Below, piece after piece: positions 3,141-64,000 of a stretch of DNA of 64,000 nt. Source of the stretch: Sulfolobales archaeon (GTDB taxonomy: Archaea > Thermoproteota > Thermoprotei_A > Sulfolobales > AG1); assembly GCA_038867615.1 (NCBI GenBank), contig JAWBYA010000001.1, positions 160,001-224,000 of the forward strand, given 5' to 3'. Position 1 is the first letter of the stretch; the number at the start of each line of letters is the position of its first letter. The position numbers and the translations under genes were made by a program. The notes beneath the pieces are model-generated. The model was not told the DNA's origin and ran no database searches. It saw nothing but the letters and a program-made list of their open reading frames with translations.

Positions 3141-3301
3141 GAGTAAATTTCTTATATGCTTTTAAGCGGTTTCAGTAGTTCCAGGGCGGTTGAAATGATA
3201 GGCATTGTTTTACTATACCGATCGATAAGCTGTGAAGAAGACCCAATCTGCAGCTTTTAGTACTCTCCATGCATCAAAGCCTAGAAACCTTTTAGAACAA
3301 T

Positions 3302-3599
3302 GCCGTAGCTAACTGTTTCAGATTTCATGATGGTTTATAGGGGTTGATATTAAACTCGAGGTTCTGCAGTAATGGAACATAGTATAAGCTCTATGTAGTT
3401 TACAGTAGATCCGGGATGTGGGGGTTTCCCCACAGCAATGAGCCAGAGCAAAGCTATGAAGGGGAGCTGTGGATCGGGGTCACCTCGAACGGGTGGAGGC
3501 CGAGGATATGGGCCCCAATGATAGGGGCCCTGAGGCCTATGAAGCCATGGGAAGAGCGGTTGGTATAAAAATCAACTGCTATGAAGCCCGAACCCCTGG
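3302..3599 (+). mobile_element. Non-autonomous IS607/TnpB-derived mini-element, subfamily A copy 1 (putative omegaRNA cassette)
   Basis: Homologous to 62332-62679: same left end GCCGTAGC...TTTCATGATGGTTTATAGGGGTTGATAT, and 3408-3596 aligns without gaps to 62488-62676; hairpins at 3417-3434 and 3510-3530; family assignment is inference. Confidence 0.7.
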
Positions 3600-4207
3600 A
3601 GTGATAACCTATACCCACCGATATTAAGTTTTATTGTAGGAGGTGTGGTTGTAGTATCAATGATAGCTAGGAGATCGTCGAAAGGATTGATCCTAATGGA
3701 GATCCAGCGGTTAACAATAACCCCGCTGGGTTGGGAGACCCCGTACGAGATGTAGAGAACACCCTCCCTAGCTCTGACCGTGGAGTAGAGGTCCGGGCCT
3801 TCCAGATCCTCGGGCTCTGGATCCTCTGAGAAGAGAAGGGTTAACACGCCTTCTCGCCTAAACAGCATACTGCTCCATGGTTTCTCACCCCTCTCTAGGC
3901 AGTAGATCTCTATACAGTCATGGACAGCGGATCTTCTGCATATGTTGTAGCCGTGTTTCCTCATATTCACGTATACAGCTACATCATCGTAGGATGATGG
4001 GATTACCAACGAGTAGCCGCATTTATCGTAAACCTCTTTGAGCATGTTCTCATATAGTAGGAAGATCTTTGAGAGGGGCCCGACTATGAAGAGGATATCA
4101 GATCTGCAGTTCGTCTCGCTAATAGTCCTCAGGGCCTTCTCACCCCTAGCGATCATGATTCTCACTCCTTGTTTCCTGCATCTGCAACCTCTATGTTCGC
4201 TCTCCAT
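3572..4207 (-). CDS. Hypothetical protein; last codons and stop lie inside the mini-element
   Basis: 211-aa ORF overlapping the upstream DUF447 gene; no recognisable motif. Confidence 0.55.
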   Translation of the reverse strand: MESEHRGCRCRKQGVRIMIARGEKALRTISETNCRSDILFIVGPLSKIFLLYENMLKEVYDKCGYSLVIPSSYDDVAVYVNMRKHGYNICRRSAVHDCIEIYCLERGEKPWSSMLFRREGVLTLLFSEDPEPEDLEGPDLYSTVRAREGVLYISYGVSQPSGVIVNRWISIRINPFDDLLAIIDTTTTPPTIKLNIGGYRLSLQGFGLHSS

Positions 4208-32450: not shown

Positions 32451-32550
<100 letters not shown>

Positions 32551-60226: not shown

Positions 60227-62305
60227 GTGTTAATGTTTCTCCGAACACTCAACCTGGATGGCTACATGCACCGGATCGAGGCCTATGAGATCTTCATCAG
60301 ATCCCTTGCACACATCCTGTTGGTAAAAGGGATTAAGGTGAATACAAACAATGTAAAGGCTCTCCTGAAGAGCCTCGGGATCGGGTTAGGAGGGGCGGCG
60401 TTAAGCCTGTTGGTATCGGATCTGAAGAACTATAACAAGGGATTCTCAAGGCGGGAGATAGAGGATCTACAATACCGGTTCCCGAGGCTCATGTACAGGG
60501 ATTATAGAAGGGTTACTGCATCATATTATTCATCGCCCCTAGCTGTTGAGCTTCTTGCTAGGCTGGCGAGGGACTATATAAGTTCTAGGGAGGGTAAAGT
60601 GGTTATAGCGGATCCTTTCATGGGCTCAGGAATCCTGCTAAGGGGTGTTGTAAAGAGGGTTGGTGTGGACAATATAGCTAGAATCTGGGGCATGGAGTTC
60701 GATCATGTTGCATGCGTCTTTGGCTATGCATCTCTATTGGATGCCGTGGGCGGCGATATAGATATTAGGATCATATGTGGAGACTCCTTCAAGATCCTCT
60801 GGAGATCTAGGGAACAAACCCCCGGGAATAAGGATGACTGGGAAACTGACGTCATACTAACCAACCCCCCGTTCACCAGATGGGAGAGTCTTGAGAAGAA
60901 CTATAGGAAATATCTTTTAAGGCTCATAAGAGCTTTAGGGTATTCAAAATACATCGTTAGAAACCAGGTTAATCTCCAGGCGATATCCCTCTTTCTTATA
61001 GACTCTATCCTCAGGGAGAGAGGTCTTCTTCTAAGCATCATCCCGGCATCAACGTTTTACACAATATATGGGCGTGGCGTTAAGGCTATGCTTAGAGAGA
61101 AATACAGGGTTCTCGGGCTCTTTAAAGGCTGGAAACCTTCATTCTCACTCGACAGTGGGTTTATGGAGCTAGTAATGGCAGCGATCAAGGGGGAGCGGGG
61201 GGAGGCGGCTTTTGTAACGCTGAGCGATAATTGTATCGAAAGCATAGGGTTCAGCGGGTCTATTGTTAAGGGGGAGTGCTCTTCTACCTACACGGATCTG
61301 GGGAGAGGATCCGGGGTTCTTGATATGAACTGGCTTCTCTATTTTGAGGAGTCTAGCCTTAGACCCCTGCTAAGAGTTATCGAGGATCTTTTGGAAAAAG
61401 ACATCCTATTATCAATGAGAGAGGCACATGGAAAGGATCTTATAATGAGGGGTGTCGAGATCTATGGTCCCAACTTCTTCACAATACCCAACAGATTCTG
61501 GAGGATCGTTAGTCGTGGTAGTGATGCTATCGCTATAGAGAAGATCGATTCTGGCGAGCAGCTCTCAATACCCAGGGATTACTTGGTCGAGGCTCTCAGA
61601 AGGCCGGGACTATATGTTGATAAGATCCTCGTTGAAGATCCAGAGCACTATATAGTATCGATACCGCCGAAAGATCCAAAGAAACTCCCCCAGGATGTTA
61701 GGAAATATATAGAGTGGGGCTCTAGATCTAGAGTTGCTACCACAGCTAGAAGGACTTTTGGGAGGAAGTGGTATAGCCATGTGCATAGGCAGATAGCGTC
61801 TAAAAACCCCTTTGGAAAACTCTTCCTCCCCGATAAAGTTGATGTTAGGCTGAAGGGTAGGGGTGTGTTTGCAATAGCATCAACAAGACCTATATCGGCT
61901 ACGAAGAACTTCTATATATTGGTGCTGAGCGACCGCATAGCACCTCTCCTAACTCTGTGGTTCAACAGCTCTGTTTTCCTAACACTGCTGATCCATGGGG
62001 GTAGAAGGATTAGTGAGACCTGGACAAGGCTTCTTATAGAGGACTATCTAGAGCTCCCAGTACCCAACCCCAAGATCTGTGAGGATCACTATGAAGAAGC
62101 TGAGGATCTTCTGAGAAGCATAGGTAGAAAACCCCTACCCCCGATCCCGAACCAGATAGGTGGGAAACAGCGTGTAAGTATAGATACACTGGTATTGGAA
62201 GCCCTGGGAGTAAAAGGCGGTGAAGAGCTTAGAAACCATATATATAATATCCTGAGCAGGTTTTTAGAGGCATCATCGGCAAACAAGCGTTACCATGGAG
62301 CCTAA
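60227..62305 (+). CDS. N6-adenine (amino) DNA methyltransferase, gamma motif order
   Basis: SYYSS (X), ADPFMGSG (I), TNPPF (IV), long C-terminal putative target-recognition region. Confidence 0.88.
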   Translation: MLMFLRTLNLDGYMHRIEAYEIFIRSLAHILLVKGIKVNTNNVKALLKSLGIGLGGAALSLLVSDLKNYNKGFSRREIEDLQYRFPRLMYRDYRRVTASYYSSPLAVELLARLARDYISSREGKVVIADPFMGSGILLRGVVKRVGVDNIARIWGMEFDHVACVFGYASLLDAVGGDIDIRIICGDSFKILWRSREQTPGNKDDWETDVILTNPPFTRWESLEKNYRKYLLRLIRALGYSKYIVRNQVNLQAISLFLIDSILRERGLLLSIIPASTFYTIYGRGVKAMLREKYRVLGLFKGWKPSFSLDSGFMELVMAAIKGERGEAAFVTLSDNCIESIGFSGSIVKGECSSTYTDLGRGSGVLDMNWLLYFEESSLRPLLRVIEDLLEKDILLSMREAHGKDLIMRGVEIYGPNFFTIPNRFWRIVSRGSDAIAIEKIDSGEQLSIPRDYLVEALRRPGLYVDKILVEDPEHYIVSIPPKDPKKLPQDVRKYIEWGSRSRVATTARRTFGRKWYSHVHRQIASKNPFGKLFLPDKVDVRLKGRGVFAIASTRPISATKNFYILVLSDRIAPLLTLWFNSSVFLTLLIHGGRRISETWTRLLIEDYLELPVPNPKICEDHYEEAEDLLRSIGRKPLPPIPNQIGGKQRVSIDTLVLEALGVKGGEELRNHIYNILSRFLEASSANKRYHGA

Positions 62306-62331
62306 GCAGTATCAAAGGGTGAGGCAGTGGA

Positions 62332-62679
62332 GCCGTAGCCAGCTGCTTCGAGTTTCATGATGGTTTATAGGGGTTGATATCGAATTTATCTCTGTGAAAC
62401 ATTATATAAGCTCTTATATTTCACTGGGATGCCCGCCCAACAATGAGGGTGGGATAGAGATCCAAGTGGGCGGGGTAAATGCAGAGAGATCCAGGATGTG
62501 GGGGTTTCCCCACAGCAATGAACCAGAGAAAATCTATGAGGGGGAGCTGTGGGTTGGGGTCACCTCGAACGGGTGGAGGCCAAGGATATGGGCTCCAATG
62601 AAAGGAGCCCTGAGGCCAATGAAGCCAAGGGCTGAGCGGTTGATATCAATATCAACCACAATGAAGCCCGAACCCCGGG
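62332..62679 (+). mobile_element. Non-autonomous IS607/TnpB-derived mini-element, subfamily A copy 2
   Basis: Homologous to 3302-3599; 50 bp longer, with an extra hairpin CCCGCCCA...TGGGCGGG (62432-62474). Confidence 0.7.
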
Positions 62680-63058
62680 CTATTAGATCTTAAGCATGGA
62701 AAAACACTATAATCACGTCAGAGCGATATCTATACACTCCACCAACATGCTATGGTGTGGTTAAAGATCTCTCTATGGAAGATCTCCTAGCGTTGCTGGG
62801 ACCCTCGTGTAGCGAGTACTAATTAGTAAGAGGCATTCTGTGCAATGGTTCGTGGATATATTTTGAAACAGGGTTTGCATGGAAGCAAACTCATAGCCAG
62901 GTCGTATTAATAAAGCTCCTATAGATCTTTCTTCACAGCATTGGTGGAAAAACGATTCTCTCTAAGGCAATTCCACTCTATAGATAATTGCATTGATTTC
63001 TCATTCTTATTCAATATATTTATAAAGCCAGAGAAATTATTGTTCTGAGGCGACCTTT

Positions 63059-64000
63059 ATGGTGGGATTCGCGTATAGGTTGTTAATAATAGCTATGCTC
63101 GTGATAATTCTATCAACAGTGGCTGGGGCTCTAGGCATCTATGCCTATCCACAGGATAGCTATGGCTTGGGCTCTAAGGTAGATCCTGATGTTCTGAGAG
63201 AGCTCTCGAGATCGGGGAGTGCTAGGGTTCTCATAATGCTTGAGGATAGCTCTGCGCAGAGAATGATCTCTGACACGGGGATCAAAGGTCCAGGCCTTGT
63301 AAAAACGCTTATGGAGAGTGCATACGATTCCCAGAGAAGCATTATTGCTAGCATTGAGGCTTCGGGGGCTGTTATCGAGGATAGGCTATGGCTTGTCAAC
63401 GCGATAGTAGCTACTGTGGATCCCAACTCGCTGAGGATTATAGCTGGTCTCGATGGTGTTAAAGGTATTATCCTTGATAGGGTTTACAAGCTTGTAGATC
63501 CTGTGGAGAAGATCTATGACGTTATCTCTATAACGCCCCAGGATAGTGTGAGTAGACGTATAGTCCAGGCGGATCTCCTCGAATCTATGGGGATCACTGG
63601 CAGAGGGGTTAGGGTTGCGGTTATAGATACAGGGATCCAGGTTAACCACCCATGGCTGATCAGAAACGGAACCAGTGTTGTCACAGCAGAGTATGACGCC
63701 ACAAGAACAGGGGTTATTAATGTATGCACCTATCTAGGAATCCCAGCCGAGCATGGAACCCATGTTGCCGGGATAATAGCGAGCCAGGATACCACCCATA
63801 GGGGGGTTGCTCCCGGCGTTGATATATATAACGTGATCGTGTTCAGCAACATCACACAGTGCGAAGGAGCCTTTAGCTCGTGGATCATAAGGGGTATTGA
63901 GTGGTCCCTCCTAGGCCCTGATGGTAGGCCTGGTACAGGTGATGAGGCCAATATAATTAGCATGAGCCTCGGCGCCCTCGCGCCTCCGTGGTTTATGCAT
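63059..64000 (+). CDS. Secreted S8 subtilisin-like protease (partial, runs off the window; absent from the ORF track)
   Basis: Hand translation from ATG 63059: signal peptide, prodomain, GITGRGVRVAVIDTG (Asp) and HGTHVAGIIA (His). Confidence 0.93.
   Translation, partial: MVGFAYRLLIIAMLVIILSTVAGALGIYAYPQDSYGLGSKVDPDVLRELSRSGSARVLIMLEDSSAQRMISDTGIKGPGLVKTLMESAYDSQRSIIASIEASGAVIEDRLWLVNAIVATVDPNSLRIIAGLDGVKGIILDRVYKLVDPVEKIYDVISITPQDSVSRRIVQADLLESMGITGRGVRVAVIDTGIQVNHPWLIRNGTSVVTAEYDATRTGVINVCTYLGIPAEHGTHVAGIIASQDTTHRGVAPGVDIYNVIVFSNITQCEGAFSSWIIRGIEWSLLGPDGRPGTGDEANIISMSLGALAPPWFMH

Follow-up and report, generated by a model that had tools for sequence, protein, structure and literature searches.

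Protein-free IS607-type mini-elements of a Sulfolobales archaeon with a predicted omegaRNA scaffold behind a TATA-like box

The two window copies, their insertion sites and their repeat family

We analyzed a stretch of 64,000 nucleotides from the genome of a hot-spring Sulfolobales archaeon (GenBank assembly GCA_038867615.1, contig JAWBYA010000001.1, positions 160,001 to 224,000 of the forward strand; hereafter the window), which carries two plus-strand copies of a dispersed, non-autonomous IS607-type element. Copy 1 (3303–3596, 294 bp) is a short form, and copy 2 (62333–62676, 344 bp) is the canonical long form; both lengths include the CC dinucleotides at the two junctions. Each copy consists of a left end (LE) common to tnpB-bearing elements, two TATA-like boxes, and a core homologous to an omegaRNA scaffold, that is, to the 3' end of tnpB together with the right end of the transposon. 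The longest open reading frame (ORF) inside the element has at most 54 codons, and the cassette is therefore protein-free. A preliminary description of the window had proposed a cassette that lost tnpA and tnpB and gained a promoter directly before a guide RNA scaffold. Its central claim holds at the level of the sequence, and its interpretation overall is partly supported.

In copy 1, the LE (3303–3351) contains a first TATA-like box (TTTATA, 3334–3339). The second box (TAGTATAA, 3380–3387), a putative promoter element that is kept across the 17 complete copies of the family described below, precedes the predicted transcription start near 3409–3410 and the core (3411–3596). In copy 2, the LE spans 62333–62381, and its TTTATA box (62364–62369) occupies the same position that lies just before tnpA in complete relatives. 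The second box of copy 2 (TTATATAA, 62402–62409), again a putative promoter element, is situated 22–23 nt before a hairpin named P0 (62431–62475), which has an internal kink-turn (K-turn)-like loop and derives from the zinc-finger coding region of tnpB. The core of copy 2 (62491–62676) comprises the helices P1' (GGGG/CCCC), P2, P3, P4, P5, and P7, followed by a 3' tail ending in ACCCC. In copy 1, 58 bp are missing from the stretch that separates the TATA box from the core in copy 2, and P0 is absent from it. As the preliminary description stated, the two copies share a LE of ~50 bp, a TATA-like box, and a core of ~186–190 bp that aligns without gaps at an offset of 59080. The 3' flanks, whose positions follow from the right boundary (3597–3616 in copy 1 and 62677–62696 in copy 2), would be the guides if the RNA works as an omegaRNA.

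The boundaries of the element were set by comparison with related genomes. In the following, G000 denotes this assembly (2.22 Mb, 28 contigs, 94.4% complete) and C1, C2, and so on its contigs; G002 and G003 are the sister species compared; other related genomes include G001, G008, G027, G028, G030, G037, and G038; and L-numbered loci are core-bearing loci or regions in related genomes. Both window copies are absent from the orthologous sites of G003, and the lengths of these empty sites fit a model of insertion at CC without indels. At the C1:449143 locus, a CC alone stands between the left and right flanks in G003 and G002, and in G000 the two flanks enclose CC, GTAGCC...GAACC, and CC. The C2:315550 locus shows the same CC pattern and is empty in G003, giving three exact empty sites at two loci, so that empty-site alleles with exact CC junctions are present in both sister species. 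The element inserts at a CC dinucleotide that is left at both junctions, with no further duplication. For IS607, Chen et al. (2018, PMC6188088) describe an exchange over a 2-bp identical sequence, which is GG, the same dinucleotide read on the other strand. The empty sites also refine the limits of homology given before: the ends are indeed sharp and lie at 3303–3596 and 62333–62676, and the GG that had been placed beyond the right end belongs to the flank and is shared by coincidence.

No terminal inverted repeats or target-site duplications were found in the 17 complete copies with their flanks, nor in the junction sample of 34 left and 26 right junctions. When the flanks of six copies of G002 and G003 were compared with G000 by BLAST, three were insertions shared with G000, one was an empty site too divergent for use, and two gave no clear assignment; empty-allele searches at the C6:62257 and C4:19707 loci yielded no usable junction. 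Contigs from four DNA runs that cover 61800–63200 of the window have a depth of ~7–45 in the flanks and of 100–2100 inside the element, because all copies add up there. One of these contigs, from a population that is ~10% divergent, skips 62309–62754, and its divergence is too high to fix the junction. In G002, the region orthologous to ~3190–3600 of the window contains a long-form copy that points the other way with respect to the flanks (G002:C43:15534–15883), which suggests an independent insertion and a favored target region.

At the left junctions of 33 copies, G stands at +1 in 31/33, followed by C in 29/33 and C in 30/33; one copy has ACC at this junction. Because the CC is derived from the target, the motif before the element reads (A)(A)GCC, and because the same sequence directly precedes the right flank in the empty site, (A)(A)GCC is a candidate transposon-adjacent motif (TAM). 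At an occupied site, the same flank would be preceded by ACCCC instead of the candidate TAM. We also observed that the element LE (3302–3320 and 62332–62350) starts with GCC-GTAGC(C/T)-A(G/A)CTG, and that an intron-containing tRNA gene on the plus strand of the window (32451–32550, Rfam score 64.2 bits) starts with GCCGCC-GTAGCTCAGCTGG. Past the CC crossover, the first ~15 nt of the element thus look like the start of this tRNA, with its 5' acceptor and D-arm sequence, by chance or as the trace of a tRNA-gene target. ARAGORN called zero tRNAs in the window.

The element belongs to a large repeat family. A genome-wide search with a 201-nt core query gave 47 matches in G000, far beyond chance, and the clustering of all BLAST pieces in G000 resolved 81 related loci. 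These include 17 complete long-form copies, 29 loci with at least 80% of the core, and ten variants composed of LE, P0, and a partial core, the remainder being fragments. The 17 complete copies are 82–90% identical to copy 2, align with it end to end, and have unrelated flanks. Every copy has a different 3' flank. The picture of dispersed guide-RNA genes needs the correction that many copies are deletion variants or fragments, with at least 80% of the core left in only 29 of the 81 loci. Elements of ~255–275 bp form at least two deletion subfamilies of 4–5 copies each, which lack element positions ~192–279 or ~173–252 (e.g., C1:20278–20540, C2:259512–259774, C4:77462–77724, and C5:28443–28699), indicating that they transposed after part of the scaffold had been lost. 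On C1, 15 core matches lie on the plus strand and 4 on the minus strand, a bias that is unexpected for a double-strand IS607 intermediate. Between C7:26800–29100 of G000 and L058 of G003, a run of 2301 bp with an element copy in it shows 100% identity, with other orthologous flanks at 88–96%; this may reflect a recent exchange between populations or common assembly material. Next to copy 1, a minus-strand ORF of 211 codons without a Pfam match (3572–4207) ends within the element. Since its last nine codons and stop come from the right end of the element (3572–3596) and the site is empty in G003, the insertion replaced the C-terminus of this ORF.

Relation to tnpB, the putative promoter, and the predicted RNA fold

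The core proved to resemble the 3' region of tnpB. Five matches to the TnpB zinc-ribbon domain occur in G000, two of them directly before a core copy. The C1:11373–12743 locus has an intact tnpB frame of 457 codons that runs through the core (Pfam PF07282, E 7.9e-14), and its protein matches TnpB, Cas12f, and Fanzor2 in the PDB. At C1:50423–51744, a tnpB frame in three pieces is followed by a core copy. Element positions 161–346 are 89% and 85% identical to the two tnpB loci of G000 and have the same ACCCC end, and positions 1–51 match a sequence ~240 bp upstream of the tnpB start. Among related core-bearing loci, a tnpB frame of 427–442 codons enters the core in 5 of 19. The retained right part of the element overlaps the last ~60–70 codons of tnpB, in the sense orientation, and stops exactly at the transposon boundary.

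Complete relatives place these ends in the IS607 family. In G038, G037, G030, and G027, the cognate tnpB has a Resolvase-domain gene directly upstream, and four regions, one per genome (L061–L064), have the order LE, tnpA (204–207 codons), tnpB (434–442 codons), core. The LE match to these complete relatives covers positions 13–50, and the core matches as well. The one TnpA that was scanned has an HTH_17/MerR domain at residues 8–55 followed by a Resolvase domain at residues 63–193; this order, with an N-terminal DNA-binding domain, is the arrangement reported for IS607 TnpA (Chen et al., 2018, PMC6188088). Because the same ends flank a serine-recombinase tnpA and tnpB in four genomes, the family is IS607 and not IS200/IS605, the parentage that had been assumed before. 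Taken together, we are highly confident that the element is an IS607-derived guide-scaffold mini-element; it resembles a miniature inverted-repeat transposable element (MITE) or a PATE (palindrome-associated transposable element), without inverted repeats.

The cognate TnpB of G000 has many relatives. The protein of C1:11373–12743 has 245 database relatives at E up to 1e-5, and the best 120 of these are at least 54% identical to it; the named relatives come from Ignisphaera, Zestosphaera, Desulfurococcaceae, Sulfolobales, Fervidicoccaceae, and a few other archaea. In an alignment of 121 sequences, the RuvC-I Asp and the RuvC-II Glu are both present in 121/121. The ~60 residues encoded within the core form a conserved C-terminal tail of the protein, M-[RW]-G-F-P-H-S-x-[DE]-P-[ED] ... 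E-L-W-V-G-V-T. This TnpB branch may already be listed in the clade tables of Altae-Tran et al. (2023, PMC10691335). G000 has a second tnpB in single copy (C6:23980–25287), which is 39% identical to the first and also has D-R-Q at RuvC-III; a similar terminal hairpin is present at its right end, which finishes with the same ...CCCAAACCCC. In addition, a G(G)TTGATAT motif occurs at element positions 39–51 and in both arms of P7 (window 62371–62381, 62638–62646, and 62650–62657), so that it is present in direct orientation and inverted in the hairpin. By analogy with the repeats of IS607 ends described by Chen et al. (2018), it is a candidate binding repeat of the serine TnpA, and P7 may serve both DNA and RNA roles.

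The second TATA box is at a promoter distance from the predicted RNA. The box TTATATAAGCTC ranks with the best-conserved stretches of the 17 complete copies, and the neighboring spacers and loops vary. It lies 22–23 nt before P0 in the long form, or before the core in copy 1, which is the usual archaeal distance from TATA box to transcription start. P0 itself weakly matches the zinc-finger coding region of tnpB in G000 (75.5%, E 0.012), and its hairpin sequence can be recognized within a tnpB remnant (L040 of G001) as well as in the mini-elements from other genera. P0 is probably where the ancestral RNA starts, and the mini-element would then have lost ~85 nt internally, between P0 and the core. 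Mini-elements that share this design and have no tnpB frame were found at five loci in four other genomes, namely L035 and L052 in G008, L037 in G037, L049 in G038, and L054 in G028. In L035, L052, and L037, the TATA box of the left end lies 21–27 nt before P0, and L049 retains the first bases of the tnpA region of the complete G038 element. These independent mini-elements of four other genomes keep P0 and the whole core, ~240 nt, directly behind a TATA box. The five loci in four genomes indicate that the arrangement of promoter and scaffold arose repeatedly by internal deletion, which joins the left end, with the tnpA promoter, to the RNA region.

We next examined the fold of the core on a structure alignment of 43 distinct cores, made up of mini-elements from G000, G002, and G003, both tnpB-linked copies of G000, and further copies that belong to other genera. 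Pairs were counted on a hand-built structure of eight helices and 38 pairs (1622 cells), with two controls, one with the 3' partners slid by 1–3 columns and one of 500 shuffles. The proposed helices have standard pairs in 93.8% of the cells, compared to 37.9–55.6% with slid partners, and cells with a double change number 75, compared to 1–14 in the slid controls. None of the 500 shuffles reaches the observed paired fraction, double-change cells, or covariation score; the number of extra pair types is reached in 61/500 shuffles and is not significant. This covariation was counted across related sequences without a phylogeny correction, and a large part of the variation distinguishes genera, where the region is coding as well.

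Two stems had first drawn attention to the core. The hairpin TGTGGGG/CCCCACA is present, and the stem that reads GGGCCCC/GGGGCCC in copy 1 and GGGCTCC/GGAGCCC in copy 2 is a true double change. The compensatory pattern generalizes and persists with more copies, with 11 of the 38 pairs changed on both sides over the 43 copies. Double changes affect two pairs of P1', P4 (GC to CG in 11 sequences), three pairs of P5 (8–14 sequences each), one pair of the three-pair helix 155–157/199–201, and four pairs of P7 (up to 14 sequences); P2 is invariant. Compensatory changes also occur within the mini-element copies, for example, at columns 119/132, 25/34, and 26/33. Across the columns of the 17 complete copies, conservation is highest in the TATA box and the stems and lowest in the loops. 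The long-range pairs 24–27/205–208 and 95–99/198–202 suggested by RNAalifold were rejected in favor of the local P1' and the helix 97–99/150–152, because sequences changed at 25/26 keep the local pairs and break the long-range ones. An alternative hairpin, 86–90/96–100, was also discarded; its pair 87/99 holds in only 34/43 sequences.

The core also contains motifs that resemble K-turns. A K-turn consists of a Watson-Crick C-helix, a 3-nt bulge, tandem sheared G·A/A·G pairs, and then an NC-helix. The same definition is given in PMC5435971. ATGA is repeated five to six times in the core, as noted before, and this recurrence is part of a pattern in which a helix is followed by three unpaired bases and GA, with GA and the same helix on the opposite strand; the motifs fit internal K-turns rather than the K-loops first proposed. 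In copy 2, motif a (62513–62549) has the bulged strand CAGC-AAU-GA-ACC, with GA at 62520–62521, and the other strand GGG-GA-GCUG, with GA at 62544–62545, on a C-stem of 8 bp. Motifs b and c (62571–62626) stand back to back on the shared 4-bp GGCC/GGCC helix P4 and enclose the hairpin P5; their GA dinucleotides are at 62576–62577, 62585–62586, 62612–62613, and 62621–62622, and the region includes the stem with the compensatory change. Motif d lies with the hairpin P7 (GCGGTTGAT/ATCAACCAC) at 62629–62669, with GA at 62634–62635 and 62663–62664, and the P7 arms bear GTTGATAT, a motif that is also in the LE. In the family consensus, three motifs (P2, outer P4, and P7) pass a strict pattern that asks for a C-helix of 4 bp or more and two or more NC pairs. 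The inner P4 motif passes with one NC pair and reads AAUGAUA ... CUGA, which we take to resemble boxes C and D. The eight G·A/A·G positions are kept in 40–43 of the 43 sequences (motif a, 42/43), and the NC pair 99/150 is U·G in 28, U-A in 7, and C-G in 5. In motif a, 3b·3n is A·G, and a G at 3n is reported to permit folding in metal ions alone (PMC4382518).

Several results speak against the K-turn interpretation. Copy 2 contains three K-turns by this count compared to a mean of 0.79 in dinucleotide shuffles, of which 106/2000 are as high, and 215 of 3000 random genome windows are as high; neither result is significant. Mini-elements of other genera do not retain the P0 K-turn, the second, 39%-identical tnpB family on contig C6 does not retain motif d, and the K-turn bases are conserved codons in the tnpB-linked copies. 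A literature search on TnpB with L7Ae or kink-turn found no description of a natural K-turn in an omegaRNA. From their sequence pattern, the four K-turn-like motifs may recruit the archaeal K-turn protein L7Ae. We regard it as a tentative and rather doubtful idea that the IS607 omegaRNA of this hyperthermophilic order is built on four conserved K-turns, two of them back to back, and needs L7Ae to fold, forming a ribonucleoprotein (RNP) of TnpB, omegaRNA, and L7Ae to which dozens of promoter-driven mini-elements supply guides. If true, this would be the first host RNP-assembly factor in a TnpB/Cas12-type effector, it would make the host L7Ae a partner of an RNA-guided transposon nuclease, and it would link transposon guide RNAs to the archaeal small ribonucleoprotein (sRNP) machinery. 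An L7Ae gene is found in the window at 2218–2622 on the plus strand (Pfam PF01248, E 8.8e-33), ~680 bp upstream of copy 1. Its proximity is probably a coincidence; a K-turn-binding protein is nonetheless encoded in the genome. Together with the intron-containing tRNA gene, it marks the window as archaeal.

A proposed guide RNA used in trans and its alternatives

The account that we favor, with fair but not strong confidence, is that the element is a non-autonomous archaeal IS607 derivative that forms a promoter-driven omegaRNA gene used in trans. Internal deletions would have joined the left end and the tnpA promoter, in this genus also the second TATA box, to the RNA region, and each copy would thereby be a small promoter-driven omegaRNA gene. 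The transcript would start ~23 nt past the TATA box, run through the scaffold, and extend into the unique 3' flank, which would be the guide. This RNA would be loaded in trans by the single intact cognate TnpB (C1:11373–12743), and a serine TnpA, also in trans, would move or excise the element. The RNP would then recognize the rejoined empty site, that is, the candidate TAM with the flank, and promote re-copying of the element from the sister chromosome. A homing model of this kind is reported for bacterial IS605 (Meers et al., PMC10055086) and IS607 (10.1101/2023.11.20.567912), and TnpB-driven retention is reported for IS607 (Zedaveinyte et al., 10.1101/2023.11.20.567912). PATEs are described as often encoding omegaRNAs that need TnpB from other elements in trans (Meers et al., PMC10055086). 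That the element functions in trans at present is a narrower claim, for which we put the chances slightly below even.

Several results count against this account. On the RNA side, a look through 24 sequencing runs found none of RNA. The number of pairs with a double change, 11, compares to 9.3 in shuffles (93/500 as high) and is not significant. G·U cells number only 103 compared to 70 A·C cells, and both strands fold well below shuffles (z −2.9 for the plus strand and −4.4 for the minus strand); because the G·U/A·C ratio and the folding barely discriminate, the choice of the RNA strand depends mainly on the tnpB sense and on where the TATA box lies. An Rfam scan of the window at the gathering threshold found only the tRNA gene, with the element unmatched, and a scan of the element at E up to 10 gave two chance matches and nothing relevant, which places the RNA outside the curated families. 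The motif at the left junction is weak outside GCC, with A at −1 in 19/33 copies and at −2 in 18/33. The deletion subfamilies, which lack 80–90 nt of the scaffold, have multiplied, and together with the low number of loci with most of the core they indicate that an intact scaffold is not needed for spread. No IS607-type tnpA was found in the 94.4%-complete G000 assembly; its only resolvase, on contig C23, has an N-terminal catalytic domain and no adjoining tnpB, and is therefore not counted as a cognate transposase. Excision, and hence homing, may thus not occur now.

The partner protein raises a further doubt. At the RuvC-III position, where Cas12f and Fanzor2 have a catalytic Asp, the alignment has Gln in 112/121 and His in 9/121 sequences, and with this Asp replaced, nuclease activity is not assured. 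The acidic [DE]-P-[ED] motif of the conserved tail may be a relocated catalytic residue. Single catalytic changes are described as often reflecting a relocated residue (Wiegand et al., PMC10705468), and conserved RuvC-III rearrangements, some of them nearly restricted to archaea and associated with serine recombinases, were judged to be probably active (Altae-Tran et al., 2023, PMC10691335).

A first alternative is that the element is a relic, a decaying IS607 derivative whose right ~190 bp are kept for recombinase sites and by youth, with a fold that is inherited and functionless. That no IS607 tnpA was found in the assembly fits such a relic, as do the 52 of the 81 loci that are deletion variants or fragments and the two subfamilies that spread without the whole scaffold. 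The copies are 82–95% alike, leaving little time for decay, and most of the double changes distinguish lineages at the level of genera, where the region also codes for protein. The presence of GTTGATAT in the left end and in both P7 arms likewise agrees with the protein-binding repeats of IS607 ends described by Chen et al. (2018). However, in the one IS607-family right end footprinted in that study, TnpA bound only two motifs within ~30 bp of the end (PMC6188088). In the 17 complete copies, the loops and linkers are clearly less well conserved than the TATA box, stems, and GA dinucleotides, independent mini-elements in four genomes retain P0 and the whole core behind a TATA box, and compensatory changes occur among the mini-element copies themselves. 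We therefore consider a mere relic unlikely.

The changed RuvC-III could alternatively mean that the RNAs are exapted regulators, with a non-cutting TnpB guided to the DNA beside each insertion and tuning neighbor genes as TldR does. All 121 clade members have Gln or His for the canonical Asp, dozens of guides with different flanks exist, and dead TnpBs can be RNA-guided repressors, as reported for TldR (PMC10705468). However, only one of the three catalytic residues is changed, which in the reports cited above is often a relocated residue (PMC10705468) or, for archaeal RuvC-III rearrangements, judged probably active (PMC10691335), and the conserved tail offers an acidic motif. Unlike TldR, these tnpB genes still lie between transposon ends and, in relatives, beside tnpA. 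At an occupied site, moreover, the guide match is preceded by the element end and not by the flank motif. We regard exaptation as improbable.

A different mode of movement, as an IS200/IS605-type PATE mobilized by a Y1 (HUH) transposase through single-stranded hairpin ends, has very little to recommend it. The lack of inverted repeats and target duplication, the hairpins near the right end, and the orientation bias on C1 (15 plus, 4 minus) would agree with it. However, no Y1 transposase (PF01797) was found in G000, G002, G003, G038, or G030, and the single match in G037 is on another contig; complete relatives have a serine recombinase directly upstream of tnpB; both junctions have a 2-bp core, as in IS607; and there is no conserved 4–5-nt target immediately 5' of a left-end hairpin. 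It is equally hard to credit a host small-RNA family unrelated to TnpB, such as box C/D-like L7Ae sRNPs riding on the repeat, since the several K-turn-like motifs, one of them resembling boxes C/D, are offset by the lack of any Rfam snoRNA or sRNA match at E up to 10, by the lack of a C'/D' pair with guide spacing, and by the identity of the sequence with the tnpB 3' end.

If it is indeed a promoter-driven omegaRNA gene, the element would be a clean example from nature, archaeal and of the IS607 family, of a transposon stripped down to two recombination ends together with a promoter and a guide-RNA gene. It would offer a minimal scaffold, (A)(A)GCC as the candidate TAM, and a TnpB from a thermophile whose RuvC-III is non-canonical. 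The repeated appearance of the same design in several genera argues that a guide RNA helps such passengers persist, an argument limited by the spread of the scaffold-deleted variants.

Comparison with known systems

The closest parallel is with the PATEs of Geobacillus stearothermophilus. Like these, as described by Meers et al. (PMC10055086), the present element is protein-free and multi-copy, shares its left and right ends with tnpB elements, and keeps the omegaRNA region, with TnpB and TnpA proposed to act in trans. Unlike the PATEs described there, it is an archaeal IS607 element with a CC core and without palindromic single-strand ends, and it has a TATA box fused before the scaffold, a deletion between P0 and the core, and K-turn-like motifs. 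Because Meers et al. describe omegaRNA-encoding PATEs, the guide-only principle is already known.

The comparison with IS607 itself is similarly close. As in the accounts of IS607 (PMC6188088; 10.1101/2023.11.20.567912), inverted repeats and target duplications are lacking, a 2-bp core is found both in the target and at the termini, short motifs are repeated near the ends, where an imperfect inverted repeat also lies, and the omegaRNA region overlaps the right end. The core dinucleotide, CC on the RNA strand, is GG on the other strand, as reported for IS607. Unlike the IS607 elements of these accounts, the present element has lost both genes, and its cognate TnpB has a changed RuvC-III and a C-terminal tail encoded inside the RNA region.

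As an RNA, the core is like the omegaRNA or right-end element RNA (reRNA) described for ISDra2 and for Sulfolobus SisTnpB1 (10.1101/2023.03.06.531077), in that it is the sense 3' end of tnpB, its scaffold stops at the boundary, and the flank is the putative guide. Unlike those described omegaRNAs, it has no sequence or Rfam match, and its putative scaffold is ~240–320 nt long. By pattern, the K-turn-like motifs combine two helices, the first Watson-Crick, with a 3-nt bulge and tandem G·A/A·G pairs, and two of the motifs stand back to back on a short helix, like those of L7Ae-bound K-turn RNAs such as box C/D and H/ACA sRNAs and the double K-turn of RNase P (PMC5499556, PMC4382518), whereas the motifs here are a match to a sequence pattern whose count is not significantly above shuffles. 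The TldR guide RNAs (Wiegand et al., PMC10705468) likewise have a TnpB-like partner with a RuvC departing from D-E-D. The TldR loci described there are without transposon ends or tnpA and have at least two catalytic changes or truncations, whereas here the ends are intact and one residue differs. A literature search on IS607 with MITE, with supplementary files outside its scope, found no description of the present family. What is new here compared to these systems is that the element is archaeal and of the IS607 family, that its boundaries are exact to the base, that the putative left-end promoter and the scaffold were fused recurrently, and that the fold is rich in K-turn-like motifs.

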